A stretch of 64,000 bases of DNA from Verrucomicrobiales bacterium (GTDB taxonomy: Bacteria; Verrucomicrobiota; Verrucomicrobiia; Verrucomicrobiales; V1-33). A program made the translations under genes and the position numbers. The stretch is taken from the NCBI GenBank assembly GCA_038210825.1, contig JBBQWG010000011.1:29877-93876 (forward strand). Direction: 5' to 3'. How positions within the stretch are numbered: position 1 is the stretch's first letter; each line of letters opens with the position of its first letter. This document shows, in pieces, positions 7,445-59,989 of the stretch. The notes under the pieces were generated by a model that did no database searches, was not told where the DNA came from, and worked only from the letters and a program-made list of their open reading frames with translations.

Positions 7445-8434
7445 TTAGGGTTCTGCTTTTATGCCGCCCCTTAGTTTGAGCCCCATTTCCAACCCATTTT
7501 TTTCCAGGGTAGCCTGCTGTTCCTGATGGGTCCGGAAGACCTCGAGTTGCTCCGGTGAGAGAATCGACTCGACCCGTCCAAGGATTTTGGCCCGCAACTC
7601 CACTTGTTGTTCCTGGAAGCGCTGCAAATTGGCTTCGGTAAAGGAATCGAAGTCGACGTTTTTCTGATCAGAAAGATCGGTGTCGTATTTGAAGTTGGTC
7701 CGCTCCTGATACATGGCGTCCATCAGTTGGGATTCCGCCTCTTCAGTGAGGCCGAGTCCTTTGTCCTTCAATTGCCCGTTCAAGGCACTCAACTGCTGCC
7801 GCTCCGGCTGGGATTTTTCGTAGGCCTCAAACTTGGCGTAGTCTGCGGTGCCCAGCAGTTCCTTCAGGGCCTTTGCCGAAGCCTCGGTGGCTGCCTTCAT
7901 GGCTTCAGTCTTCTGTTTTTTCTCTTCAGGAGTTAATTTGTTGCCTCCTATCATGTCCAAACCCAACTCCATGCCCGCTCCGTCGCGATCGGCGAGGAGC
8001 TTCGACAACTGATCCTGTTTGCTTTCATCCAGCCCTAAAAGGTCAAATAGGTCCCGATACATCAAGTCCACCTGCGAGCGCATATTGGACCGCATCACTT
8101 CCTGCATCGCGGGGTCCTTCATCATTTCCACCATGGCCGCCAGGGGATTCTCGTCCTTCACCACCGGACCGGTTGATTTTTCCTGCGCCTTCTTTTCTTC
8201 CTCCAGTGCTTTGGCGTGGTCCGGCCCCAAACCTTCCGGACCGTCCGATTTCACATCGGTTTTGGACTGCAGCGCAACCTTTTTTGTGGCGGAAATCTGA
8301 TAGGCATCCCGTTCCTGGGTCACCATGGCCAGCCTTGCTTCCAGCAGCCTGCGCTGACGCTGTTCATAGGTTGCCCAGCCACCCAGTCCCATCGCTGCCA
8401 GCAGCAGCACCATCGAAAGTCCGTTGAATTTCAT
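7445..8434 (-). CDS. Hypothetical membrane-anchored, highly charged alpha-helical protein
   Basis: 329-aa ORF with a single N-terminal TM (MKFNGLSMVLLLAAMGLGGWA). The rest is rich in E/K/Q/L with coiled-coil character. No recognised family. Confidence 0.5.
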   Translation of the reverse strand: MKFNGLSMVLLLAAMGLGGWATYEQRQRRLLEARLAMVTQERDAYQISATKKVALQSKTDVKSDGPEGLGPDHAKALEEEKKAQEKSTGPVVKDENPLAAMVEMMKDPAMQEVMRSNMRSQVDLMYRDLFDLLGLDESKQDQLSKLLADRDGAGMELGLDMIGGNKLTPEEKKQKTEAMKAATEASAKALKELLGTADYAKFEAYEKSQPERQQLSALNGQLKDKGLGLTEEAESQLMDAMYQERTNFKYDTDLSDQKNVDFDSFTEANLQRFQEQQVELRAKILGRVESILSPEQLEVFRTHQEQQATLEKNGLEMGLKLRGGIKAEP

Positions 8435-8557
8435 GCCGGAAATTTAGCGGTCTGGCGCTGGGATGCAATCCTTTCCACGCGGGTTCCCTCCTTGCAAAGG
8501 TTGCCGGCGGTAAAAGATGGCCCGCGCAGTTTGCCGGGATGATGCTATGGACGCGGC

Positions 8558-9978
8558 ATGGAAACGCGTTTTGAAATTGCCCATATGCTGCGGGGCCTGG
8601 AGTTCAATTCCGGGCGGGCGGTGTTGAAGTTTTTGCTTTGTATCCTGGCGGCCTGGACGGCCGCATTCTGGCCTGAACATGCAGGGCTATCGGAAGCAGG
8701 GCGTTGGTCGCTGGCCATCGTGGTGCTGGGCGCAGGCCTTTGGATGACCGAGGCCATCCCGGCTTTTGCCGTCGCCTTGCTGGTGATTGGGCTCCAGATC
8801 CTGACGCTGGGCCGTCCTGGAGGCGTGTTGCTGGGTGCTGAGGACAGTGCGGGCTGGGAGATGTTTGTCGAACCGTGGGCCAGCCCGCCCATGTGGTTGT
8901 TTTTGGGGGGTTGGTGCTGGCCCGTGCCGCAGAGCGGACCGGGTTGGACCGCCATCTTGCCTCGAGGGTGATGCGCTGGTCGGGCGGGCGGGCCCAAGTG
9001 CTGCTGCCCGCGCTGATGGGGCTGGCCTTTCTCTTCAGTATGTTCATGTCCAACACGGCCACCACGGCACTGATGCTGGTCATGCTGCGCCCGGCATTGG
9101 CCCCCCTGCCCATGGATTCGCCCGTGGCCCGCTCGTTGCTGCTCGGACTCGCGGTGGCCGCCAATCTGGGCGGGATGGCCACCCTGATCGGCTCACCCCC
9201 CAATGCCATCGCGGCGGGATTGCTGGACCGTGAAGCCCCGGTCGATTTTTTGGGCTGGGTGCTGCTGGCGATGCCGCCGTCACTCTTGCTGTTTGGCCTC
9301 GCATGGCTGCTGCTGAGGCGTCCGGTGCGCCGCTGCCCGGCCACCCTTCCGGTGGAACTGCCGGTGGCCATGGTGCTTGGCCTTGCCGTAAAACGCTGGC
9401 AGCGCCTCGCCACGCTGGCTATTTTGTTGCTGACCGTGGGACTGTGGATGTCGGGTTCATGGCATGGCATCCCCACCGCCGTGGTGTCCTTTGTGCCCAT
9501 CGTGGCACTTTCCATGACCGGTGTGATCGGACGCGATGAAATCAAAACGATTGAATGGGATGTGCTGATCCTGCTGGCTGGGGGATTGTCTCTCGGGGTT
9601 GGAATCGGAGTCTCCGGGCTGGCGGACTGGCTGGCCCACCACCTGCAAAGCACCAGCATGCCTCCCTGGCTGGCGGCCCTCGCCCTCGCATGGCTGGCGG
9701 CGCTGGTGTCCAATCTGATGAGCAATACCGCCGCGGCGAACATCCTGCTGCCCGTGACGGTAATCATCGCCCAGGCGATGCACCATGAAGCAGCCCTGTT
9801 TGTGATCCCGGTGGCCCTGGCATGCTCGGTGGCCATGGCGCTGCCTATATCCACTCCGCCCAATGCCCTCATCTATGCCAGCGGGCGGATTCGGGGAGTG
9901 GATTATTTGCCCATCGGAATAGCCATGTTCCTGATTGGTCCTCCCCTGGCCGTGGCATGGGTTTGGCTGATGCGGTGA
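8558..9978 (+). pseudogene. DASS/SLC13-type anion:Na+ symporter interrupted by a 1-nt frameshift (pseudogene or sequencing error)
   Basis: Two overlapping ORFs (8558-8971 in frame 2; 8875-9978 in frame 1) together give ~473 aa. The duplicated SNTA motifs typical of DASS/ArsB-NhaD permeases are present (FMSNTATTALML and LMSNTAAANILLPV). The frames join at the T5G6 run 8900-8910. Confidence 0.7.
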
Positions 9979-35160: not shown

Positions 35161-37163
35161 GGACCGGCGGCCTGCTTCGCCACCCAGTCACGCATCTCTG
35201 CCAGCTCGGCGGTGAAGCCGCTGTTGAGGATGGGGAAACGGCACCACGTTTTGGGATCAAGGCTTTCGTCGTCGAGGTGGAAGCCGGGGGCATACCGCTC
35301 GCGCTTCCACTGGTTGCGGCACCACAGGACAAAAAACCGCTCCACCCAGACCGTGAGTTGCGCCAGGGGATACTCGGGAAACCGGAGCTGCATTTGGCGC
35401 AGGACATCCAGCGGCATGAATTTGTCGCGGATAGCGGCCCGTTCAATGGCGTCCAATAACGGATAGGGCATCAGATCCGATTCATCAGTCTGCCGGCTGC
35501 CGGGTGGCCGCAGTTCTGCGGTGGGAGCCTGGGCATTCACCAGCCGGAGCACCGGAAGCGGATGCCGTTCCGCGGGGCCAAAATGCTCCATCCAGCGCAG
35601 CCATTCGCGCAGCCATGCCTTGTCAATACCCGCGAGGGGGCTCAGGCCGCCGCTGGTGTCACCGTCCATGGTGGCATATCCCACGGCGGCTTCGCTCCGG
35701 TTGCTGGTGGCAAGCAGCAGTGCCCCCTGCAGGTTGGCCACCATCCAGATCCCAGGGCTGCGGACCCGTGCCTGAATGTTCTGCAGGCTGACATCGTCAC
35801 GTTCCCACGTCAGGGGACGGCCGATCCCGCCTTCGACCATGGCAGTGTAGCCCGTCACCAGAGCACTGATATCAAACTCCAGATGCCGGGCACCGGTGGC
35901 TTCGGCGACCGCAAGGGCGGCCTCGCGGGTGACACTGCCACTGTTGCTGCTGGCCTGATAGGCGGTGGTCAGGAGGGCGCGGACCAGACCGGCCAAATCC
36001 GTGGCTTCCTGGACTTCGGGGTGCCATGCCAGCTTATTTTTGAATCCATCGATACCCAGTTCTTCGGTGCCCAGTTCGACCATGAGCCGGATCAGGACCA
36101 CCAGAGAGGTGCTGTCGGCACCACCGCTGAGGGAAACAACAAAGCCCCGCGAGCGGCTTTTCCGCAGGTAATCAAACAGCGCCAGAGGCACGGCCCGGGA
36201 AAATTCCTCCAACTTCAGATCCGGGGCTGCTTCCCATGGCTCCGCTTCGCGTCCTCCCGGTTCAGGGGCCAACTCCGGCCAGGAAAACGGCACGGAAACA
36301 CAGCCTGCTTCATGGGCCGGAAGATCAGGCAGGGAGCTGAAGGAACGCAGCTGGGCCACCCGCCCGGCATCGATATCCACCTGGGCGCTGATCACGCCGA
36401 AGTCCTGGTAGGAAAAGCGCTCGGCGGTGGCCACGAGGCGGCCCCCGGAAGCGATCATGGCCTCGCCGTCGAAAATGGCACGTCCGGATTCATTGCCCAG
36501 CAGGTTGGCGTAGACATAAGCCGCATGGAACGCGCGGCTGCCTTCGAGGATAAAGCGCTGGCGCACGGCATTTTTGCCAAAGGCAAAATGGCTGGCACTG
36601 GGATTGAGGATCACATCCACCCCGCGGCGGCACAGACTGATGCCGGGACGGTCCGGGGCCCAGGCATCCTCACAAATTTCAAATCCGAAGCGGATGCCGC
36701 CTGCTTCCATGACGAGGTCACCGGCCATATAGGCACGGCCCTCATCATCCGTGAGGAGGGCCCGGACGCCCTCCGGCCATGGTTTGAACCAGCGGGGTTC
36801 GTAGTGGATGCCGTCCCCCGCGAGATGGCGCTTGGCGGCAAAACCCGCGATGCGCCCGTCAACCACCAGGGCGGCCATGTTGTAGACGGATTTGATATGC
36901 AGCACCGGCAGACCCAGGCTGACCACCAGTCCGGAAGTGTCAGGAAGCAGATCATGCAGGAGTTTCCATGCGGTGCATGCCACCCCCGGCGCGTGGAACG
37001 CATCCTCGCAGCCGTATCCTGTGAGGCACAATTCCGGCAGACAGACCACGGCAGCTCCCTGGGACCGGGCTTCGGCAAGGGCCGCCCGGATGCGGGCCTG
37101 ATTGCCCGCCCAATCGAGCGGGGTCTGGTTGAGCACAGCGGCAGCGACTTTGATCAGCTTCAT
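35157..37163 (-). CDS. nadE: Glutamine-dependent NAD+ synthetase (CN-hydrolase + NAD synthetase domains)
   Basis: N-terminal nitrilase-type domain (LPELCLTGYGCED, EICEDAW). PP-loop VVSLSGGADSTS in the C-terminal half. Converges on dnaX with a 4-nt overlap. Confidence 0.85.
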   Translation of the reverse strand: MKLIKVAAAVLNQTPLDWAGNQARIRAALAEARSQGAAVVCLPELCLTGYGCEDAFHAPGVACTAWKLLHDLLPDTSGLVVSLGLPVLHIKSVYNMAALVVDGRIAGFAAKRHLAGDGIHYEPRWFKPWPEGVRALLTDDEGRAYMAGDLVMEAGGIRFGFEICEDAWAPDRPGISLCRRGVDVILNPSASHFAFGKNAVRQRFILEGSRAFHAAYVYANLLGNESGRAIFDGEAMIASGGRLVATAERFSYQDFGVISAQVDIDAGRVAQLRSFSSLPDLPAHEAGCVSVPFSWPELAPEPGGREAEPWEAAPDLKLEEFSRAVPLALFDYLRKSRSRGFVVSLSGGADSTSLVVLIRLMVELGTEELGIDGFKNKLAWHPEVQEATDLAGLVRALLTTAYQASSNSGSVTREAALAVAEATGARHLEFDISALVTGYTAMVEGGIGRPLTWERDDVSLQNIQARVRSPGIWMVANLQGALLLATSNRSEAAVGYATMDGDTSGGLSPLAGIDKAWLREWLRWMEHFGPAERHPLPVLRLVNAQAPTAELRPPGSRQTDESDLMPYPLLDAIERAAIRDKFMPLDVLRQMQLRFPEYPLAQLTVWVERFFVLWCRNQWKRERYAPGFHLDDESLDPKTWCRFPILNSGFTAELAEMRDWVAKQAAGP

Positions 37164-37217
37164 AATTCAGCAGCAGTTACGCCTGCCGCAGCCAGCTTGT
37201 CGAACGCAGAACCGGGC

Positions 37218-39155
37218 TCAGGGTATGGCCTTGAGGAGTGGGCCGCTGAGTTCCCTGACGGCATCCGCTCCTATCAAAAAGACTCCCGGCACCAGACTGT
37301 GGCGGCCATACCAGAGCGGGGCCCGCTCATCGGTGGACATGGGGGCCAACTCCACCCGGACCTGCTGGCTGCGCGCCGGTTTGCCCGCGGCATCTGCGGG
37401 AATATCATAAGCTGCTTCCAGCACCACCGGAGCCTGGGCGAGCACCTGCAGGCTGGTGTCGGACTCGCTTTGCCATGAAACGGCCTGAAGGCTGCCGAGC
37501 CGGGCCGCGAGGGCTTCCGCCGCAGCGGGATCCAGCAAAGGCGTCACTTCTTCCCCGGTCCGGGTGGCTGTCCACACAAAGGAATTGGGAGCAGCCGTCA
37601 GCTCCACGGCCGGAGATCCTCCAAGCCTCTGACGCACCGCGCGGAGCTGTATGCGCTCGAACCCGGGAAGCTGAAGGGTGCGCCAACGGATCAACTGCCG
37701 GGGCACCAGTCCGGCAACCTCCGGACCAACCTGATAGACAAAGGGCTCCCCGGCAAAATTGGCGTAAACCTTGCCCGTCGGCAGAATGCCCAGGCGGAGA
37801 ATCCGGCTGTTGTCCGTGGTGAGGGGAGCAAGGGCTTTCAGGCCGGCGTGTTTGCCGGTGGCAAATGTCAGGGTGACCGCCGGCTGGTCGAGCCCGAACG
37901 GGGCCTTGTCAGTCAGCATATCACTCGAAAATTCGAGGATATCGGCCTCGTTGAGCGACTTGATCAGCTTTTCCACCGCTTCGCCTGCCGCCGCCTGGAA
38001 TTCGTCAGTGCCCTTTTTCCGGACCACCCAGCGTTCGCCAATGCGGTAGAGAGTGACATTGTCACCGGTGGTCAGGTCCACTTCCATGGTGGTGACTTTG
38101 GCAGGATCGATATCGCCGAGGCGGTGATCGCGGAAGGTGTTGGGACTTTCTGCAAGGGCAATGGAATCGACCAGCTCCCGGTCGACTTTAAACTCGACTT
38201 TGCGTTCGCGGTCCCGGCAGATCACTTCGCGGGACGCCGGATCGGCATCCGGGAAAAACGTCAGGGTCACGCCCTTGCGGTCGTAGGCCCCGTCCGGCCA
38301 GAGGGTTACTTCCCCCAGCATTTGACTGGCCGCCACCGCCGCCCCGCTGCCGGTGGTGGCCGTAAAGCCCGTGAGTTTCGCACCGGTGATCATGCCGAGA
38401 AAATCGGCCACCACCGCCTGGTCGGCCCGGGCATTGGGGAGCGGCCGGGAAATCACCCACGGCGTGCCGTCGGCCTCATGGGTGGATTCCCGGCTGATCT
38501 CGATTTCACCTTCGCCCAGATTGATGGAAAACTTGCGGATGCGTTCGGCGGGATACTTGGCAATTGACCGGTCGCGGAATTCGTCAGGCGGCTGGGTGAC
38601 AAACTGGCGGAGGTCCGGACTGACAATATAAATATCACGGCGCGTCTTCACGTCGTTAAACAGGACATACATCGCCTTGCCGAGGGGGGCGGTGCGGCCG
38701 AGTTTCAACTGGATGAGGCGTGCTCCGCCCGGTTTGCGGTAGGTGATTTCGACCGCCCCGCTTTCATCCAGTCCCAGAGCTGAGTCCTTCACCTTGCCGC
38801 TGCGCATTTCCTCCACATCAAGGGTATCAAGGATGCGGGCTTTACTAACAAAATCGAGCAGGGTCCGGATGGTTTCGCGGCTGGCGCGGTCCTTGACCCC
38901 GCGCGCCATCTCCCAGCTCCCATCCTCACTGCGGCGGAAAGCGATGTTGCCCGAGGCGCTCTTCAAATCGATGCCTCCAACCTCATCCGGGGAAATTTCC
39001 AGCGAGACGGATTCATCGCGCAGGATATCCCCCTCCAGATCGAACAGGAAAAAACCGGCGAGGTCGCGCGGGGGCTGGCGGCGTTCATGCAGCAGCACAT
39101 AGGCCGCAAGCCCGGCCGTAAGGAGCAGCAGGAGGATGGTGGTGCTGAGTTTCAC
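37218..39155 (-). CDS. DUF4340-like periplasmic protein, accessory to the ABC-2/GldG system
   Basis: 645 aa with an N-terminal anchor MKLSTTILLLLLTAGLAAYVL and a long beta-rich body. It is the fourth gene of the ATPase-permease-GldG string, the usual position of DUF4340 proteins. Family assignment rests on context and architecture. Confidence 0.55.
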   Translation of the reverse strand: MKLSTTILLLLLTAGLAAYVLLHERRQPPRDLAGFFLFDLEGDILRDESVSLEISPDEVGGIDLKSASGNIAFRRSEDGSWEMARGVKDRASRETIRTLLDFVSKARILDTLDVEEMRSGKVKDSALGLDESGAVEITYRKPGGARLIQLKLGRTAPLGKAMYVLFNDVKTRRDIYIVSPDLRQFVTQPPDEFRDRSIAKYPAERIRKFSINLGEGEIEISRESTHEADGTPWVISRPLPNARADQAVVADFLGMITGAKLTGFTATTGSGAAVAASQMLGEVTLWPDGAYDRKGVTLTFFPDADPASREVICRDRERKVEFKVDRELVDSIALAESPNTFRDHRLGDIDPAKVTTMEVDLTTGDNVTLYRIGERWVVRKKGTDEFQAAAGEAVEKLIKSLNEADILEFSSDMLTDKAPFGLDQPAVTLTFATGKHAGLKALAPLTTDNSRILRLGILPTGKVYANFAGEPFVYQVGPEVAGLVPRQLIRWRTLQLPGFERIQLRAVRQRLGGSPAVELTAAPNSFVWTATRTGEEVTPLLDPAAAEALAARLGSLQAVSWQSESDTSLQVLAQAPVVLEAAYDIPADAAGKPARSQQVRVELAPMSTDERAPLWYGRHSLVPGVFLIGADAVRELSGPLLKAIP

Positions 39156-53903: not shown

Positions 53904-55463
53904 TCAATCAAGGCCGATGGCCCCAAGGTCTTTGATGTAAGGGCTTTGCAGGATGAACATCACGGCGGGGAGGCGCTCCACCGGGCTGAGTTTGCCATCT
54001 TTGTCGAGGTCGAGGGCGATGAGGGGAGCCCGGGCCCTATCAAAATTCTGTTGGGCCCGGATTTGGGAAGCCGAGCCTGCCCGGCTGCGGCCCAGGCCAA
54101 AGACGGTAACATCGTTCTCGAGGAGGCGGTCGATCACCTGATGGGCCAGGAAAACCCGGAGGGCCTGATGGGTGGCTTCCTTCTGCTCCGGAGTATCGAA
54201 CATCACCGCGAGAGTGATGACCCCCATTTCATCGGTGGTGGCAGGCCCCCAAATCACGCGCTGCGGCGGCTGGGTGGGGTTGGCCGGATTCTCTGCGGAG
54301 TTGTCATAAGACATCAGCACATCCAGCCGGGTTCCCACAGGAAGTTTGACAGGCTTTTCAAAGTAATAATCCTCCTGCCATTTGAAATCCCAGTGCGAGG
54401 TCTTCAGGAGCCAGCGCGTGCTGCCATCCGGAAAGGTGGCGGTCATTTCCATGCGTTTGCCCAGATAGTGGGCATGGGCATTCACGGAGAAGGCCTCACA
54501 GTCCGCCGGAATCACAAAGGAGGCTTTTTCCTCATGGTTCTTGGCACCGGCTGGGATGTCGATGCCCTGCATCGCACCAAAGTGAGGCGGCACGGGAATG
54601 ATGGACCAAGGACGGGCAGTAGGCTCGTCCGCGAAATAAAACCCGACGGAAGATTGGTCGGTGGTTTCCCGTCCCATGGGATGATAGTGGATCTGCACCA
54701 CCAGATCGGTCCCTTTGGGGATGAAATACCGCAGGCCATGGGGCAGTTCGGCAGGCTGGGTGCCGACATCCCATCCGCCCATATAACGGAATTCACCATT
54801 GGACTGGCTCATCCCCCGGAAACCAGGGCCGGGGTCTTTGGCATCGTATTCCCGGGCCTTGCCGGTGGAATCGAGGTAATAAAGAATGTGATGGACCACT
54901 TTGGGATCCCCCGGATGAAATTCCAAGCCTTTCACCCAGATGTCCTTCTCCAAATTCAGGGGGATGACAAATTTGCGGTAAATGTCCCGGCCTTCGGCGG
55001 GCACGGTAAAGGCCTCCGGCATGGTCGCGATGAGGTCCGGCGGGCCGAGTTGCCAGCCGTCCGTCTGGGGCGGCAGAACCGGAGTTTTGGCGGGATCCCC
55101 CTGGGGCATGCCTGCTTTTACCCAGGCGGCGAGAAGAGCAATTTGGTCCTCCGTGAGGGACCGGTCGTTGGCATACTTCACCACTCCCGGATCAGCGTGC
55201 CACGGGGGCATGGTGCGGTCGGCCGTCACTTCCACGATTTGCCGGCCGCGGCGTTTGACGGCCTCATAATCCGTCAGGGCAAAGGGCCCGATCTGCCCGG
55301 CCCGGTGGCACGCTGCACAATGATGAAAAATGAGGGGAGCGATATCCTCACTGAAAGTGACCGGCCGCGCCTCCTCCTCTGCTGCGGACACCGGCCCAGG
55401 AGCCATGAGGGAAAACAAAGCTGCGGGAAGGAACAGGCTGGGAAGGCGCATGGTATCTGACAT
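53904..55463 (-). CDS. Secreted fusion: c-type heme (CxxCH) domain + PHM/DBH-like type II copper monooxygenase + C-terminal EF-hand
   Basis: Signal peptide MRLPSLFLPAALFSLMAPGPVSA. Heme motif FHHCAACHRAGQIGPF. Copper-site pattern VVHHILYY (CuH HH), VVQIHYHP, NAHAHYLGKRM (CuM HxH), TTDEMGV (Met). EF-hand loop DLDKDGKLSPVE. Confidence 0.7.
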   Translation of the reverse strand: MSDTMRLPSLFLPAALFSLMAPGPVSAAEEEARPVTFSEDIAPLIFHHCAACHRAGQIGPFALTDYEAVKRRGRQIVEVTADRTMPPWHADPGVVKYANDRSLTEDQIALLAAWVKAGMPQGDPAKTPVLPPQTDGWQLGPPDLIATMPEAFTVPAEGRDIYRKFVIPLNLEKDIWVKGLEFHPGDPKVVHHILYYLDSTGKAREYDAKDPGPGFRGMSQSNGEFRYMGGWDVGTQPAELPHGLRYFIPKGTDLVVQIHYHPMGRETTDQSSVGFYFADEPTARPWSIIPVPPHFGAMQGIDIPAGAKNHEEKASFVIPADCEAFSVNAHAHYLGKRMEMTATFPDGSTRWLLKTSHWDFKWQEDYYFEKPVKLPVGTRLDVLMSYDNSAENPANPTQPPQRVIWGPATTDEMGVITLAVMFDTPEQKEATHQALRVFLAHQVIDRLLENDVTVFGLGRSRAGSASQIRAQQNFDRARAPLIALDLDKDGKLSPVERLPAVMFILQSPYIKDLGAIGLD

Positions 55464-55492
55464 GGGAACGGATATCCGTCGTGGCGGGAGGA

Positions 55493-56092
55493 CTATTTCC
55501 CGGGGGCATCCGGAAAGTCAATGTAACAGCCGATTGCTTTGGTGTGTTTGACCGGCACCGGTTTGTCTTGGAGCACGGCGTCGAGGGCGAGGCGCAGGTC
55601 GCGCACCCGGGGTTCACTGCGGACAGAGCCGATCCGGACGGCCCGGTCATCGATGCGCCCCCGGTAGAGCACCTCCCCGGCGGGATCGAGCAGGCAGGCC
55701 TCCGGAGTGACCGTGGCTCCGGTGCGACGGGCCAGGGCCAGTCCGGGATCCAGCAGACCGGTCAGGGGCAGCTTGAATTCCCTTGTATGGCGGGCCACGG
55801 CTTCGGCAGTTTCGTGGGCGTAGATTCCATAACAAATCACTCCGGACTTTTGATATTCCTCAACAATCCGTGCGATTTCCGGGGCATAACCATTGCCGAT
55901 GGAACACTCTGTGGTCAGGAAAATCAACAGGGTGGCTTTCTGCCCGCGGGCGGCAAGGGGGGTGACTGCCTGCCCTGAGGTATTCTTCAGGACCACCGGC
56001 ACATGCGATGGTGGAGCTGTTTTTCCCGCCGCAGGCCCGGCTGGAGCGGAGCTTGTCACAAGCAATAGGCAGGAAAAAATCAAAATGCGCAT
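55493..56092 (-). CDS. Thioredoxin-fold redoxin-like protein lacking a CxxC motif
   Basis: ATG 56092 (verified) gives MRILIFSCLLLVTSSAPA, a signal peptide. ATLLIFLTTECSIGNGYAPEI occupies the position where redoxins carry CxxC. 29-nt gap to the monooxygenase gene. Confidence 0.6.
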   Translation of the reverse strand: MRILIFSCLLLVTSSAPAGPAAGKTAPPSHVPVVLKNTSGQAVTPLAARGQKATLLIFLTTECSIGNGYAPEIARIVEEYQKSGVICYGIYAHETAEAVARHTREFKLPLTGLLDPGLALARRTGATVTPEACLLDPAGEVLYRGRIDDRAVRIGSVRSEPRVRDLRLALDAVLQDKPVPVKHTKAIGCYIDFPDAPGK

Positions 56093-56129: not shown

Positions 56130-56711
56130 TTATACCAGACGGGTGCGTTCATAGGCATCGGCCAGGGGAATGCGGCACTGAATGCAATCAAGCTCAAGGA
56201 CATCACCGGCTGAGAGCATTTCAAAACTCCAGCCGTCTGCTTCGCGGCGATGGACTGTCATGACGACTTGGAATTGATCCACCAGCACATAAGCCTGCAG
56301 TGAGGGGATTTTTTGATAGTGGGAAAATTTCCCGTGCCGGTCAACCCTCTCTGTTTCCGGGGACATCACTTCAAAAATGACGGTGGGCTTTTCCGGATAG
56401 AGCGCGGAGTCGGCAGTGCCCGGGCAGTCCACCACCACATCAGGGTAATAATAGAATTCGGCAGTTCCCGAACGGATCCGCACCCGCATGTCCGAGGTGA
56501 AGGCTTCGCAGGGTTTTCCGCGGAGTTGTAGGCGCAGCTCCGCACCGAGGTTTGCGGTGATGCGGTTATGGCCCGCACTGGCCCCAGCCATGGCATACAC
56601 CACCCCGTTCAGATATTCGTGCCGCCGGGTGGCCATGCGTTCCCCCGCCAGATAGGCCTCCGGAGAAATGAGCAGATCTTTTACCTGGGGATGTCCCATA
56701 ATCCAAACCAT
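56130..56711 (-). CDS. Uma2-family (DUF820) putative endonuclease
   Basis: ISPEAYLAGERMATRRHEYLNGVVYAMAG..HNRITANL..YYPDVVVDC..PTVIFEVMSPETERVDR..KFSHYQKIPSLQAYVLVD is the restriction-endonuclease-like D..E.K pattern typical of Uma2. The start is ATG 56711 or 56699. Confidence 0.75.
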   Translation of the reverse strand: MVWIMGHPQVKDLLISPEAYLAGERMATRRHEYLNGVVYAMAGASAGHNRITANLGAELRLQLRGKPCEAFTSDMRVRIRSGTAEFYYYPDVVVDCPGTADSALYPEKPTVIFEVMSPETERVDRHGKFSHYQKIPSLQAYVLVDQFQVVMTVHRREADGWSFEMLSAGDVLELDCIQCRIPLADAYERTRLV

Positions 56712-56885
56712 GCCACCGGAAACGGGGGGCGGCAAGTTTTTCGCAAGTTGAGGACGTGCGCCGTCCTTCGCCGGGTATCCGTGGGGGACAACAGTTTCCG
56801 CTGGGCGATTTCCCGGGACGCTGGCAAGCTTGCCGTTCCGCATCTCTCGGAGAGGTATCGCCCGGAGTTCTTCCTTCGGGTCAGG

Positions 56886-58313
56886 TCAGAAGTCCAGATA
56901 CTCCTCTTCCGTAAGGCCGAAGTCATATCCTCCCGCTTCATTGACGGGGGGAAGGGAGGCCGCGGTTTCCGGATCGCCAGAAATGATTTTTTCCACGGCG
57001 GTGGCGGTTCCGCCGAGTTGGGACACGATGCGTTCCTGGATTTGGCGGCGGGGTTTTTCGTCAGCGATCCGGGCGCTGAGACGCAGAGCGAGGGCGGGAT
57101 CGGAAGTCAGGACGTGGCGCGCAACATTCACCTGACCGATGGCCCGGAGGGAGGGATCTTCGATTTTGGAAACCCATGCCATGCAGGCATCCACGTCCTG
57201 TTTCATCCAGCCATTGGTCAGGCCGATTATAGCGGTGGGCATGTCCTGTTCCGGCAGGTCCTGAACTAGCCGGAAGGCATCCTGAGGCGAAAGTTGACTG
57301 ACAACTCCGGCGATTTGTCCGGCGAGAAACGGCTTGATGGCATCATCCGGCTGGGCCGCCAGCCATGCTAGGGCTGCCGGTTGATCCATGGCGGCCCACT
57401 GGGCGAGGGCACGGCTGAATTGCCCGAGATGCAGCTCACGGTAATATTCACCACGGCTGGACTGAAGGGCCTTGGGGATTTCCTCAGTAGGCACCCAGGA
57501 ACCGCGCACGTATCTGGCCAATAATTCGGACTGCAGGGCGGGATGGCTTCGTCCGAACATCGGGATCGTGGAAAACCCAGGAGCCCGTGGCTTCGACAAC
57601 ATCCAGCGGCAGACGGCATCAGGATCCTCCTGCACCCAACTGGCCATCACTTTCTCGGTATCATAGGGGTCGGGGGTAGCGGCTGAGGCTTCGAGGGCCA
57701 TGATCCAGCCTTCGGGCGAATCGGGCCGCGGGCCGGGCCGCAGCAATTCCTCCAGTTTCCAGTCCAGCGGATCCGACGGGTGGTTGGAACCCATGAATTT
57801 GTGCTTTTTCAGCTCCTTGGCATATCCACGTGCGGCGGCGGGATCCTGACTGAACCATGCCTGCAGCATGGCGGCCGCGATGGTCGGGCGGACGCTCTGG
57901 GTACTGGCAGGCCAGGGTTCCTTTCCTCCGAATGCGGAGTAGGGAGGCAGCGGCATCTCGTGAAACACTTTCCATGCGGCGGATGGATCCAGGCGCACCC
58001 ACCGGGTGAGGAGAATCTTCAGCGCGGGGAAGTCCGCCTGCGGATTGAGGCGGGCAACTGCGGCGGGCAAATCTGCATCTGGCACAGCAAAGGCCCACTT
58101 CAGCCATGCCTCCCGCGAGCGTGATGCAGGGGCTTGGTAAACCTGACGGAGTTGTTCCATCCAGGCTGCTGACTCGGGCAGCGGCCGGCTTCCGGTCTGC
58201 GGCGTGGGCAGCGGCGCACGGGTGGTCGACCTGTTCTGGTCAGGCCTTCCGAGCCCATAACCGAGCAACCCGCAGCAAAGAGCGGTCAGGCCGTAGAGGA
58301 TGAGGCTTTTCAT
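56886..58313 (-). CDS. Helical-repeat protein (W..DP.AA repeat family), N-terminal anchor
   Basis: 475 aa. MKSLILYGLTALCCGLLGYGL. Repeats WVRLDPSAAWKVF, WFSQDPAAARGYA, WVQEDPDAVCRWM, WAAMDQPAALAWLA. 4-nt overlap with the upstream paralogue. Confidence 0.55.
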   Translation of the reverse strand: MKSLILYGLTALCCGLLGYGLGRPDQNRSTTRAPLPTPQTGSRPLPESAAWMEQLRQVYQAPASRSREAWLKWAFAVPDADLPAAVARLNPQADFPALKILLTRWVRLDPSAAWKVFHEMPLPPYSAFGGKEPWPASTQSVRPTIAAAMLQAWFSQDPAAARGYAKELKKHKFMGSNHPSDPLDWKLEELLRPGPRPDSPEGWIMALEASAATPDPYDTEKVMASWVQEDPDAVCRWMLSKPRAPGFSTIPMFGRSHPALQSELLARYVRGSWVPTEEIPKALQSSRGEYYRELHLGQFSRALAQWAAMDQPAALAWLAAQPDDAIKPFLAGQIAGVVSQLSPQDAFRLVQDLPEQDMPTAIIGLTNGWMKQDVDACMAWVSKIEDPSLRAIGQVNVARHVLTSDPALALRLSARIADEKPRRQIQERIVSQLGGTATAVEKIISGDPETAASLPPVNEAGGYDFGLTEEEYLDF

Positions 58314-59989
58314 GGTGCCGGCGTCTCCGTTGGAACTTTGAGCCGCTGTTTGAGAAGGATGTTGGTGAAATAATACCGTTGGCCATCAATGAGCACGGCT
58401 TCGGGCAGCAGGCGGTTCATGGCCGGTAGATCGATCCGGGGAAGGAGGCGCTCAAATTCGGTCAGGGCGGAGGCAGGATCCCGTTCAGCCCAGTGGGCCA
58501 GAGCTACCGTGAGGGCATCGGTCCGCAATTCCGGATCCGGCTGCTGGAGGGCAAGGGCGACGGCTTCCTGCGGTTTTTGCCATGAGAGACCTGCCATCAA
58601 TCCGCGCAGGCTTTTGGCTTGGGTTTCCGGCGGGCTGCTTTCCCAGATTTTCCGGGCTTCTTCAGGAGCCTGCTGGCCAAGTTTTTGAATAAACCGGTGC
58701 ATGGAATCCTGCTGCCCGGCGGGATCCAACTGTTCCCAAACTATTGCCGCAAAGCCTGGATTCTCCTGGGGGATGACGGAAAGCAGACGGGAAATGAGCG
58801 GTTCGCGCGATCCCGGGGAGAGACAGGACAGCACGGACATTACACCCGACTGGGCACGGCTCGATCCTGCCAAATGTTGGCCCAGCGCGACGGACCCCCA
58901 GTTAGATGAACTGGTCTCTCCCAGGGCAGCCGCGAGGAGATCCTGACGGAAAGCGGGATCCTTGAATCCTCCAAGATGTTCCAGCACATCCCCAGCTCCG
59001 TGCCTGGCCAGCGCCCGCAGCAGGGCTTTCTCCGGTATTCCAGGGGCCGGATTGGTGAGGAGGGCTTGCCGGGCCTCCGGGTGGGGGATCAGATAGTCCC
59101 GGGCAATGAACGGGGCCGCCTCCACGGTGTCCTCAATGGAAAACCGGCTGATCAGGTCCGCAATCTCCTGCGGGGGACGCCGCGCCGCTCCTGCCAGCAG
59201 GGCTCCCAGCCAATCTGCCCGCCGGGGACCTGACGAAGCGGCAGATCCGGCAGACAGGGTTGCCATCGCCGCAAAAGCCGCAGCGGGATCCTGACTGGCC
59301 CAGTTGCGCAGGAGAGCGGTGATGCCTGGCCGGTTGGTTTCCGTCCAGCCCTGAACCTTGGCCAGTTTCAAGGCAGATGCGGGAGCGGTTTCGGAAAGGG
59401 TTTCCAACAAAGTCGTCTGCAGTTCCGGGGTATGGCTTGCAACCGGCTGCGCCAGCAGCCATGCGGTGGCGGCCGCAGGATCCTGACGGGCCCAACCGGT
59501 CAGCACGGCCCCATGCAGCGTGGCATCCATCGCGGGTTTTTTCCTTGCCCAGGCAAGGGCCTCCCCGGGCTGCCGCACGGCCCAGGCAGTCAGCACGTTA
59601 GGGAGAACATCCGGAAGACAGGCCAGAGATTCCAGCAGAACCGGAACTTCAGGGAGGCGGTCATCCGGCAGCGATTCTATCAACTGCAGAAGGCGGATGC
59701 CGGTGCCGTTATCATCCCGCCCGGAGGCCAAAATGCCGCGCACTGCGGCAATGAGATCCGGATTGTCCAATGCCGCCATAACCAAAGGGTCGTGAACTCC
59801 GGGGAAAGGGGCGGCGGCAGTTTTGGCCCGGAACTCCGTATCGTTAGGTTCCGGCAAGGACGGACCGCCCGAAGCAACCACTGCGTGAATTGTTCCGGAT
59901 GGGCCTGCGGGCATCAGGCGGGCGGTTCCCCAGCCGGCGGCCAATGCCATCCCGCCAAGCAACAGGCAGGGCCGGAGGGAAAAACGCAT
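58310..59989 (-). CDS. Helical-repeat protein (W..DP.AA repeat family), N-terminal anchor
   Basis: 559 aa. MRFSLRPCLLLGGMALAAGWG. Repeats WAVRQPGEALAWA, WARQDPAAATAWL, WASQDPAAAFAAM, WAERDPASALTEF. Confidence 0.55.
   Translation of the reverse strand: MRFSLRPCLLLGGMALAAGWGTARLMPAGPSGTIHAVVASGGPSLPEPNDTEFRAKTAAAPFPGVHDPLVMAALDNPDLIAAVRGILASGRDDNGTGIRLLQLIESLPDDRLPEVPVLLESLACLPDVLPNVLTAWAVRQPGEALAWARKKPAMDATLHGAVLTGWARQDPAAATAWLLAQPVASHTPELQTTLLETLSETAPASALKLAKVQGWTETNRPGITALLRNWASQDPAAAFAAMATLSAGSAASSGPRRADWLGALLAGAARRPPQEIADLISRFSIEDTVEAAPFIARDYLIPHPEARQALLTNPAPGIPEKALLRALARHGAGDVLEHLGGFKDPAFRQDLLAAALGETSSSNWGSVALGQHLAGSSRAQSGVMSVLSCLSPGSREPLISRLLSVIPQENPGFAAIVWEQLDPAGQQDSMHRFIQKLGQQAPEEARKIWESSPPETQAKSLRGLMAGLSWQKPQEAVALALQQPDPELRTDALTVALAHWAERDPASALTEFERLLPRIDLPAMNRLLPEAVLIDGQRYYFTNILLKQRLKVPTETPAP

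Follow-up and report, generated by a model that had tools for sequence, protein, structure and literature searches.

What does an enzyme with the copper ligands of the peptidylglycine- and dopamine-β-hydroxylating monooxygenases (PHM and DBH) do outside the cytoplasm of a bacterium, and from where might it draw its electrons? This question is raised by two same-strand genes in a 64,000-nucleotide stretch of a Verrucomicrobiales bacterium (assembly GCA_038210825.1, contig JBBQWG010000011.1, positions 29,877 to 93,876), which in its whole length is called the window and whose own numbering is used here. An initial annotation, made from the sequence alone, had described a secreted fusion of a heme c motif, a PHM/DBH-like copper monooxygenase and an EF-hand, encoded next to a redoxin. 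We consider it probable that the two genes encode an exported, presumably periplasmic, module in which a PHM/DBH-type non-coupled binuclear copper monooxygenase with a heme c domain and an EF-hand tail is joined by a 2-Cys redoxin. The enzyme kind itself is known; its bacterial branch, the hard-wired heme c and the near-obligate redoxin are new. The computational results of this study are the identity of the domains, the homology and conservation of the ligands, the export signals and the near-obligate pairing or fusion. The module has the following parts.

53904..55463 (-): gene for the heme-c/PHM-DBH-like copper monooxygenase/EF-hand protein, 519 aa (open reading frame list, homologs, AlphaFold2 model)
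55464..55492 (-): spacer of 29 nt between the redoxin stop and the monooxygenase ATG at 55463 (sequence)
55493..56092 (-): gene for the exported thioredoxin-fold redoxin, 199 aa (Pfam, PDB relatives, Cys conservation, adjacency and fusion counts)

Two sets of homologs were used: a close set of 48 proteins, 47-77% identical to the monooxygenase, and a distant set of the 150 best distant representatives (~38-48% identity), which together with the query make up an alignment of 151 sequences.

Predicted copper core

The predicted copper-binding part of the monooxygenase consists of two jelly-roll domains.

54609..55046 (-): N-terminal jelly-roll (CuH domain), residues 140-285 (hhalign, Foldseek against 4zel/1phm, conservation)
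54888-54893 (-): CuH ligands H191/H192 in VVHHILYY (hhalign, conservation)
within 54687-54695 (-): CuH ligand H259 in IHYHP (hhalign, conservation)
54198..54608 (-): C-terminal jelly-roll (CuM domain), residues 286-422 (Pfam Cu2_monoox_C, hhalign, conservation)
54468-54476 (-): CuM ligands H330/H332 in NAHAHYLG (hhalign, conservation)
within 54225-54233 (-): CuM ligand M413 in TTDEMG (hhalign, conservation)

An AlphaFold2 model of the monooxygenase built from the 48-sequence alignment had a mean predicted local distance difference test score (pLDDT) of 83.4 and a predicted template modelling (TM) score of 0.81. When this model was compared by Foldseek with PDB entries to April 2026, the top 31 matches were human DBH (4zel) and 30 rat PHM entries, with E values of 1e-12 to 1e-9, target TM scores of 0.56-0.64 and about 310 aligned columns covering both jelly-roll domains; the best was human DBH 4ZEL at E 1.1e-12, and the next matches were unrelated jelly-rolls at E values of at least 3e-6.

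A search of PDB sequences with the family profile gave only weak matches to calmodulin EF-hands and did not reach PHM, and hhalign was therefore used against rat PHM directly. The rat PHM sequence was verified against PDB chain 4e4z_A, the deposited sequence was then aligned to the family profile, and the PHM residue numbering was checked. The alignment spans 228 columns at a probability of 95.5% (E 1.6e-8). It placed H191/H192 on the CuH ligands H107/H108 of rat PHM, H259 on the CuH ligand H172, H330/H332 on the CuM ligands H242/H244 and M413 on the CuM ligand M314; all six ligands that the initial annotation had picked out by pattern thus occupy homologous positions. Of the two His in IHYHP, H261 is conserved in only 71/151 sequences, which leaves H259 as the ligand candidate. 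In the same alignment, Q257 and Y162 correspond to Q170 and Y79, which are electron-transfer residues in PHM, and this suggests that the PHM-type pathway between the coppers has been retained. The residues that hold the substrate in PHM are not kept: R240, the carboxylate anchor, is replaced by N328, and the further anchors N316 and Y318 by V415 and T417. The only Cys residues of the monooxygenase are 49, 52 and 322, and none of the disulfide cysteines of PHM is present.

Pfam Cu2_monoox_C narrowly recognizes the monooxygenase (24.1 bits; cut-off 23) and matches 41/48 relatives; in one distant relative (P0164), the N-terminal family Cu2_monooxygen scores 19.5 against a cut-off of 30. On the strength of the fold match and the residue-level ligand homology, which together support the PHM assignment that had been offered for checking by alignment, the monooxygenase belongs, as far as sequence and model can tell, to the PHM/DBH family in both structure and mechanism, without being a PHM orthologue.

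Predicted heme c domain

The region between the putative signal peptide and the copper core carries the features of a small cytochrome.

55074..55376 (-): mono-heme cytochrome c-like domain, residues 30-130 (conservation, Pfam in relatives, three-helix model)
55305-55319 (-): CxxCH (C49, C52, H53) in HHCAACH, conserved in 150/151
55200-55211 (-): candidate distal ligand M85 in MPPW, conserved in 151/151

The CxxCH heme-binding motif noted earlier is indeed present behind the signal peptide. It also occurs in 149/150 distant representatives, which indicates that the heme domain belongs to the ancestral core and is not peculiar to the window gene. M85 is a candidate for the distal axial heme ligand. 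A match to Pfam Cytochrome_CBB3 covers residues 46-90 of the monooxygenase; the family is found in 36/48 relatives at E<=0.01 and lies above threshold in the distant relatives P0121 (34.1) and P0127 (37.1). When modelled alone, the domain is three-helical. The heme domain thus resembles class I c-type cytochromes (Cytochrome_CBB3/Cytochrom_C) in its N-terminal helix ending in CxxCH, its candidate distal Met in an M-P motif, its predicted three-helix core and its export; it differs from them in lying below the Pfam thresholds, in existing only inside a larger enzyme and in lacking a significant fold match. Membership in the planctomycete PSCyt1 family was also considered and rejected, as no PSCyt family was among the Pfam matches at E<=1.

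The two relatives named above are both tandem duplications of the whole module: P0121 (1064 aa) has two heme-c/PHM-like/EF-hand units, and P0127 (1251 aa) holds two redoxin/heme/PHM-like units in one polypeptide.

Size and conservation of the family

A word-indexed search returned more than 5,400 full-length homologs with the same single-ORF (open reading frame) layout, most of them without a name or annotated as "mono/diheme cytochrome c family protein". The concern that the N- and C-terminal modules might prove to be separate genes, through a frameshift or a mis-joining, can accordingly be set aside. Among 1.84 billion cluster representatives (50% identity), HMMER found 16,149 clusters at E<=1e-3, a count that may include partial matches, 10,038 at E<=1e-10 and 3,447 at E<=1e-30. 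Twelve positions are invariant in the 48 close homologs: C49, C52, H53, M85, H191, H192, H259, H330, H332, M413, D485 and E496. In the 151-sequence alignment, C49/C52/H53, H191/H192 and M413 are kept in 150/151 and M85 and H259/H330/H332 in 151/151.

NCBIfam has no model for the heme-c/PHM-like core, and neither a sequence search of the PDB with the monooxygenase nor the fold search found a solved structure of any family member. A literature search for bacterial PHM/DBH-like or heme-fused members returned only animal or unrelated papers and none on any member. The heme-c/PHM-like core defines a large bacterial superfamily that is apparently unstudied. The three-cofactor architecture that had been called unusual divides accordingly: sites for heme plus two coppers are the norm of this superfamily, and the predicted Ca site is a clade-specific addition. 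Some genomes carry two paralogous monooxygenases, as seen in three pairs of loci, each from one metagenome-assembled genome (MAG) (L019/L021, L025/L055 and L028/L040); within the window, no paralog of the monooxygenase was found.

Pairing with the redoxin

Co-occurrence of the two genes was counted from both sides. The monooxygenase-seeded loci came mainly from Verrucomicrobiota MAGs, with a few from Acidobacteriota, Planctomycetota, Brocadiaceae and Methylomirabilota; the redoxin-seeded loci were metagenomic, and 68 of them were informative.

Monooxygenase-seeded loci (n=86)
Redoxin directly adjacent, same strand, upstream: 33/86
Redoxin directly adjacent, same strand, downstream: 25/86
Redoxin within 2 kb: 2/86
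No redoxin, flank truncated: 13/86
No redoxin, flanks complete: 13/86

Redoxin-seeded loci (n=80)
Monooxygenase adjacent, same strand: 61/80
Fused into one ORF: 4/80
Monooxygenase on opposite strand: 1/80
Flank <600 nt, uninformative: 12/80
No monooxygenase, adequate flanks: 2/80

The redoxin is thus a same-strand neighbour in 58/86 monooxygenase loci, with the gene order flipped between clades, and the monooxygenase is adjacent on the same strand or fused in 65/68 informative redoxin loci, where one of the 61 adjacent cases (L152) is supported only by a weak match in the EF-hand region. Moreover, a redoxin is fused to the N- or C-terminus in 39/150 distant monooxygenase representatives; in the N-terminal fusions, the gap between the redoxin and heme-domain hidden Markov model matches is 3-12 nt. 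The variants with tetratricopeptide repeat (TPR) or propeller tails, at about 45% core identity to the window protein, keep an upstream redoxin gene, which in the TPR variants L087-L089 overlaps the monooxygenase gene by 4 nt. The pairing proposed from the window alone consequently holds in both directions and as fusions, and the variable gene order together with fusion at either end indicates a physical and functional partnership in which the redoxin is a near-obligate, dedicated partner of the monooxygenase.

Apart from the redoxin, no recurrent neighbour emerged from clustering of about 340 neighbouring ORFs of at least 100 aa, which revealed only local synteny, shared by 5 loci at most; neither a PAL/NHL lyase gene nor a precursor peptide recurred among these ORFs. 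In L087 and L088, a gene for a 776-aa FG-GAP/UnbV_ASPIC + TPR protein (7643-9973, +) overlaps the stop of the TPR-type monooxygenase gene by 1 nt, and its product could be a third component in that lineage. A single one of the 150 representatives, P0214 (964 aa), has a redoxin/heme-c/PHM-like arrangement followed by a C-terminal FGE-sulfatase (PvdO/EgtB-like) domain (Pfam 198 bits). The FGE-sulfatase family includes copper- and thiol-dependent oxidases, and this fusion is for that reason a possible clue to the chemistry. The MAGs of several loci with the environmental verrucomicrobial-type pair (L048, L061, L067, L069, L070, L072, L008, L010, L011, L022 and L060) are labelled 'uncultured Bifidobacterium/Bifidobacteriaceae' or 'Akkermansia muciniphila', labels that look unreliable.

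The redoxin: a 2-Cys protein without CxxC

The redoxin passes the Pfam thresholds for AhpC-TSA (32.3 against 26) and Redoxin (30.7 against 26.6), which supports the thioredoxin fold that had been read from the window sequence, and the absence of CxxC holds across the family. The single Cys attributed to the protein is not: a second, near-invariant Cys had been overlooked.

55904-55906 (-): C63 in FLTTECSIGNGYAP (Cys conservation)
55526-55531 (-): C189 in the C-terminal G-C motif (Cys conservation)

Residues were counted separately in adjacent copies (n=58) and in fused domains (n=41). All 58 adjacent copies have C63, as do 37/41 of the fused domains; for C189, the counts are 57/58 and 38/41, respectively. 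The family motif around C63 is F-L-x-T-[DE]-C-P-[IV]-[AGS]-N-x-Y-x-P, in which the window redoxin has Ser after C63 at a position where 56/58 adjacent copies have Pro; the protein also carries a cis-Pro motif, TVTPE, and YRGRIDD. The second Cys of a CxxC dithiol motif of the TlpA/ResA/DsbE type is absent in 58/58 adjacent redoxins, and neither CxxxC nor a conserved His/Met copper ligand was found in the family alignment. The peroxiredoxin motif PxxxTxxC does not fit either, as position -3 of the adjacent copies is Met in 30/58 and Thr in 22/58 and position -2 is Thr/His; the Arg of YRGRIDD is conserved and may be equivalent to the peroxiredoxin Arg. We therefore rejected both a classical peroxiredoxin and a CxxC disulfide reductase. 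Judged from its sequence, the redoxin is a CxxC-less yet 2-Cys protein.

The best NCBIfam similarities are to ResA, StoA, DsbE and MauD, all far below the cut-offs. Closer relatives are found in the PDB (2ywi, 3u5r and 2cvb, E 1.4e-12 to 3.3e-8): the uncharacterised thioredoxin-fold proteins 2YWI of Geobacillus, 3U5R of Sinorhizobium and 2CVB/2YWO of Thermus match the redoxin over nearly its full length and share with it the active-site C-P motif, Y-[RH]-G-[RQ]-x-D-D and a C-terminal I-G-C, and 3U5R, like the redoxin, lacks the first Cys of CxxC. We take these proteins to be the 'PRX-like 1' group of CDD. In contrast to the window redoxin subfamily, which is nearly always adjacent to a monooxygenase or fused with it, the 2YWI/3U5R/2CVB group has no recorded link to a monooxygenase.

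EF-hand tail and other C-terminal modules

53907..54191 (-): helical C-terminal tail, residues 425-519 (AlphaFold2 model, loop conservation)
53976-54011 (-): single EF-hand loop D485-E496, DLDKDGKLSPVE (sequence, conserved columns)

Conservation of the EF-hand loop in the close homologs
Position 1, D: 48/48
Position 3, D/N: 48/48
Position 5, D/N: 48/48
Position 6, G: 35/48
Position 8, L/I: 48/48
Position 12, E: 48/48

The loop DLDKDGKLSPVE at residues 485-496 agrees with the consensus D-x-[DN]-x-[DN]-G-x-[LI]-x-x-x-E and is flanked in the AlphaFold2 model by predicted helices at 464-484 and 494-505. The canonical 12-residue EF-hand loop described earlier is thus upheld as a conserved loop with its helices; the window sequence itself is recognized neither by Pfam EF-hand models nor by PROSITE, whose pattern PS00018 fails at position 13 (Arg). 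No second EF-hand loop was found in the monooxygenase. Among relatives, 4/48 match Pfam EF-hand at E<=0.01, the tandem-duplicated P0121 reaches 48.9 bits with EF-hand_5, and the calmodulin matches of the family profile are weak (E 0.04-0.15). The EF-hand is therefore supported at the level of the family only, and the Ca site is a predicted one.

More distant members differ in this region: an EF-type loop occurs in only about 30/150 distant representatives, C-terminal TPR arrays take its place in 34/70 of those scanned with Pfam, and one representative has a PD40/Tricorn-type propeller tail. The EF-hand tail is, on these counts, a clade-specific and variable accessory module. The frequency of TPR and propeller tails is a hint of a protein or peptide partner.

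Proposed mechanism and its alternatives

In PHM and DBH, two mononuclear coppers lie about 11 Å apart; CuH takes up electrons, and CuM binds O2 and abstracts a hydrogen from the substrate. Each turnover requires two electrons, which come from ascorbate. The bacterial periplasm lacks ascorbate, and a covalently bound heme c would for this reason be the obvious one-electron entry point. From the features described above, we infer the loading of the cofactors, the direction of electron flow, the hydroxylase chemistry, the role of the redoxin and the nature of the substrate as follows. Periplasmic one-electron donors (cytochromes) would reduce heme c (His53/Met85), and the heme, in the role of ascorbate, would reduce CuH (H191, H192 and H259). 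Electrons would then cross the inter-domain cleft to CuM (H330, H332 and M413), where O2 would be activated and would abstract a hydrogen, leading to hydroxylation of a substrate C-H bond. The redoxin would most likely support catalysis by cycling C63/C189 between dithiol and disulfide; as each turnover needs just as many electrons as the redoxin can carry, namely two, the redoxin may be an electron source or may act on a thiol substrate or product. In principle, the redoxin could act by (a) two-electron delivery, (b) handling of a thiol substrate or product, (c) copper or heme maturation or (d) being itself oxidised, among which the data do not discriminate; we favour (a) or (b) because the redoxin is permanently fused in many lineages. 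A glycine-extended peptide is excluded as the substrate, since the carboxylate anchors of PHM are missing. The variable tails (TPR arrays, beta-propeller or EF-hand) probably serve to recruit a macromolecular substrate or partner or to position it.

Several points weigh against this interpretation. The covalent heme, the bound copper and Ca, and the enzymatic activity are all predicted. Pfam recognition of the window protein is limited: of the domains that the initial annotation had listed for a scan, only Cu2_monoox_C is recovered, and that narrowly. Cytochrome_CBB3 remains sub-threshold at 17.2 bits against a cut-off of 27, the N-terminal family Cu2_monooxygen has no match in the monooxygenase and sub-threshold matches in 6/48 relatives, and EF-hand has no match in the monooxygenase itself. 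The best PDB match in the fold search with the heme domain, cytochrome SorU, was not significant (E = 2), which is not unexpected, since the model of this small heme protein did not contain the heme. The redoxin partner is not universal, as the 13 loci with complete flanks and no adjacent redoxin demonstrate. A thiol could reduce Cu(II) directly, which raises the question of why both heme and redoxin would be needed. Finally, no neighbour or fusion that identifies the substrate was found.

The best of the alternatives, which we nevertheless regard as unlikely, is that the redoxin serves in maturation, as a Sco/TlpA-like chaperone or reductase for Cu(I) that fills the two copper sites, or as a CcmG/ResA-like reductase that holds the apocytochrome CxxCH in the reduced state for heme attachment. 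In favour of this are its thioredoxin fold, its nearest NCBIfam models (ResA, StoA, DsbE and MauD, distant as they are), its two invariant Cys, which might serve to bind Cu(I) or to reduce a disulfide, and the end of the N-terminally fused redoxin a few residues before the heme domain. Permanent fusion at either end in more than a quarter of the distant members would, however, be unusual for a transient assembly factor; the redoxin has neither CxxC/CxxxC nor a conserved His/Met copper ligand, and other c-type cytochromes do not need private reductases.

The near-obligate coupling to a 2-Cys redoxin, the G-C motif near its C-terminus and the one relative fused to an FGE-sulfatase/PvdO-like domain would also fit a copper/heme-dependent thiol oxidase, in which O2, by way of the Cu sites, oxidises C63/C189, or thiols or sulfur species that they carry, and no carbon is hydroxylated; its output would be an oxidising redoxin or processed sulfur compounds. 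We think this improbable: the complete PHM-type CuH/CuM set is kept, including the CuM Met and the Q170/Y79 equivalents, and a single FGE fusion in 150 representatives is weak evidence. To our knowledge, all characterised members of the PHM/DBH fold, namely PHM, DBH and TBH, are C-H hydroxylases.

It is still harder to see the PHM-like core as a non-oxygenase protein for copper binding or electron transfer, for example in copper buffering or sensing, and we give this very little credence. Jelly-roll folds are often binding modules (PMC8812541), and the neighbourhoods offer no substrate or pathway context; on the other hand, two mononuclear sites with the exact PHM ligand sets and inter-site residues are maintained across thousands of lineages, and the hard-wired heme and redoxin argue for turnover and not for storage. 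That the monooxygenase is a true bacterial PAM/PHM orthologue amidating peptides can practically be dismissed, since beyond the common fold and copper ligands it lacks the substrate anchors (N328, V415 and T417 stand in their place) and the PHM disulfide cysteines, and it is not accompanied, among neighbouring ORFs of at least 100 aa, by a recurrent PAL/NHL lyase gene or precursor peptide.

Comparison with known systems

In animals, PHM and DBH are the copper enzymes behind amidated neuropeptides and noradrenaline, respectively. The catalytic core of PAM, PHM (PDB 1PHM, 1SDW and 4E4Z), is extracytoplasmic and shares with the monooxygenase the two-jelly-roll core, the CuH His3 and CuM His2Met sets at homologous positions and the Q170/Y79 equivalents. 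The two are only 15-19% identical, and the monooxygenase lacks the disulfides, R240/N316/Y318 and a PAL partner of PHM; unlike PHM, it is bacterial, carries a heme-c domain at its N-terminus, ends in an EF-hand tail and is paired with a dedicated redoxin. The biochemistry of PHM, DBH and TBH has, as far as we know, all been worked out on eukaryotic ascorbate-dependent enzymes.

In DBH (human, 4ZEL; MOXD1/TBH relatives), as in the monooxygenase, the catalytic core is part of a multidomain protein with an extra N-terminal domain. DBH, for which ascorbate is the reductant, also contains a DOMON and a dimerisation domain (PMC12164859). The extra N-terminal domain of the monooxygenase is instead a predicted c-type cytochrome, and its tail is a single EF-hand.

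The cytochrome domain of cellobiose dehydrogenase reduces the copper of lytic polysaccharide monooxygenases (LPMOs), and such a relay from heme to copper monooxygenase provides the concept of a heme domain serving as built-in or dedicated one-electron donor to an extracytoplasmic mononuclear copper oxygenase. The folds of the two systems are unrelated. In the cellobiose dehydrogenase/LPMO system, heme b in a DOMON-like domain and a histidine brace reside on separate proteins, whereas in the monooxygenase heme c and the PHM core would be combined in one chain.

A 2022 survey (PMC8812541), which sets PHM against bacterial PNGase F, describes PHM as widespread in eukaryotes, and bacterial homologs are absent from a 2025 PHM review (PMC12164859). 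We tentatively suggest, with the doubt leaning somewhat against us, that the genes described here represent a large, unstudied bacterial PHM/DBH branch that is periplasmic, is wired to respiratory electrons through a covalent heme c and to thiol redox through the 2-Cys redoxin, performs a novel hydroxylation outside the cytoplasm, whose substrates may be proteins or peptides that the tails recruit, and could be the source of the eukaryotic neuropeptide- and catecholamine-forming enzymes. If this is true, the module would offer a tractable system for the long-debated entry of electrons and their transfer between the two copper sites, would bring to light a new kind of oxidative reaction in the periplasm of Verrucomicrobiota, Planctomycetota and Acidobacteriota, all of them abundant in soil and water, and would bear on the origin of the animal PHM/DBH enzymes. 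In present genome annotation, the family, with its 3,447 clusters at E<=1e-30, is unnamed, and its C-terminal copper domain is picked up by databases no more than marginally.

Gene starts, export and neighbouring genes

55383..55463 (-): putative Sec-type signal peptide, residues 1-27 (MSDTMRLPSLFLPAALFSLMAPGPVSA/AEEE) (basic n-region, hydrophobic core, V-S-A cleavage-like site)
nt 55451 (-): alternative monooxygenase start Met5 (candidate)

The coordinates of the secreted 519-aa monooxygenase and of the secreted redoxin 29 nt upstream agree with those first given, as do the signal-peptide-like starts, and every motif quoted at the outset was found in its place. The signal peptides of both products were judged by reading the sequence by eye; the AlphaFold2 model shows residues 1-26 of the monooxygenase at low pLDDT and without secondary structure. 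A collection of 15 billion proteins does not contain the 519-aa form, and the closest relative has 515 aa; for these reasons Met5 may be the true start, and the signal peptide is kept with either start. Read from the ATG at 56092, the redoxin has 199 aa, and an identical product is on record from NCBI; a longer frame opened by a TTG, which extends to 56224, would run into the preceding gene. A scan of the 29-nt spacer for promoters and terminators gave nothing above chance level, which is consistent with co-transcription of the redoxin and the monooxygenase.

The preceding gene (56130-56843, -) encodes an Uma2-family putative restriction endonuclease (PF05685, 91.7 bits). It lies on the same strand as the redoxin gene, ends 37 nt upstream of the redoxin start and is not conserved beside the pair elsewhere. 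It is preceded by tandem ORFs at 56886-58313 (-) and 58310-59989 (-), which overlap by 4 nt and encode secreted-looking proteins of 475 and 559 aa with no Pfam match; the two are weakly related through a helical repeat of about 35 aa, 'L..W(A/V)..DP.AA..W' (BLASTP E 1e-6). The sole other long open frame of the window with a CxxCH (35460-37475, +; 672 codons between stops) has this motif at codon 504 and is unrelated to the monooxygenase by tblastn.

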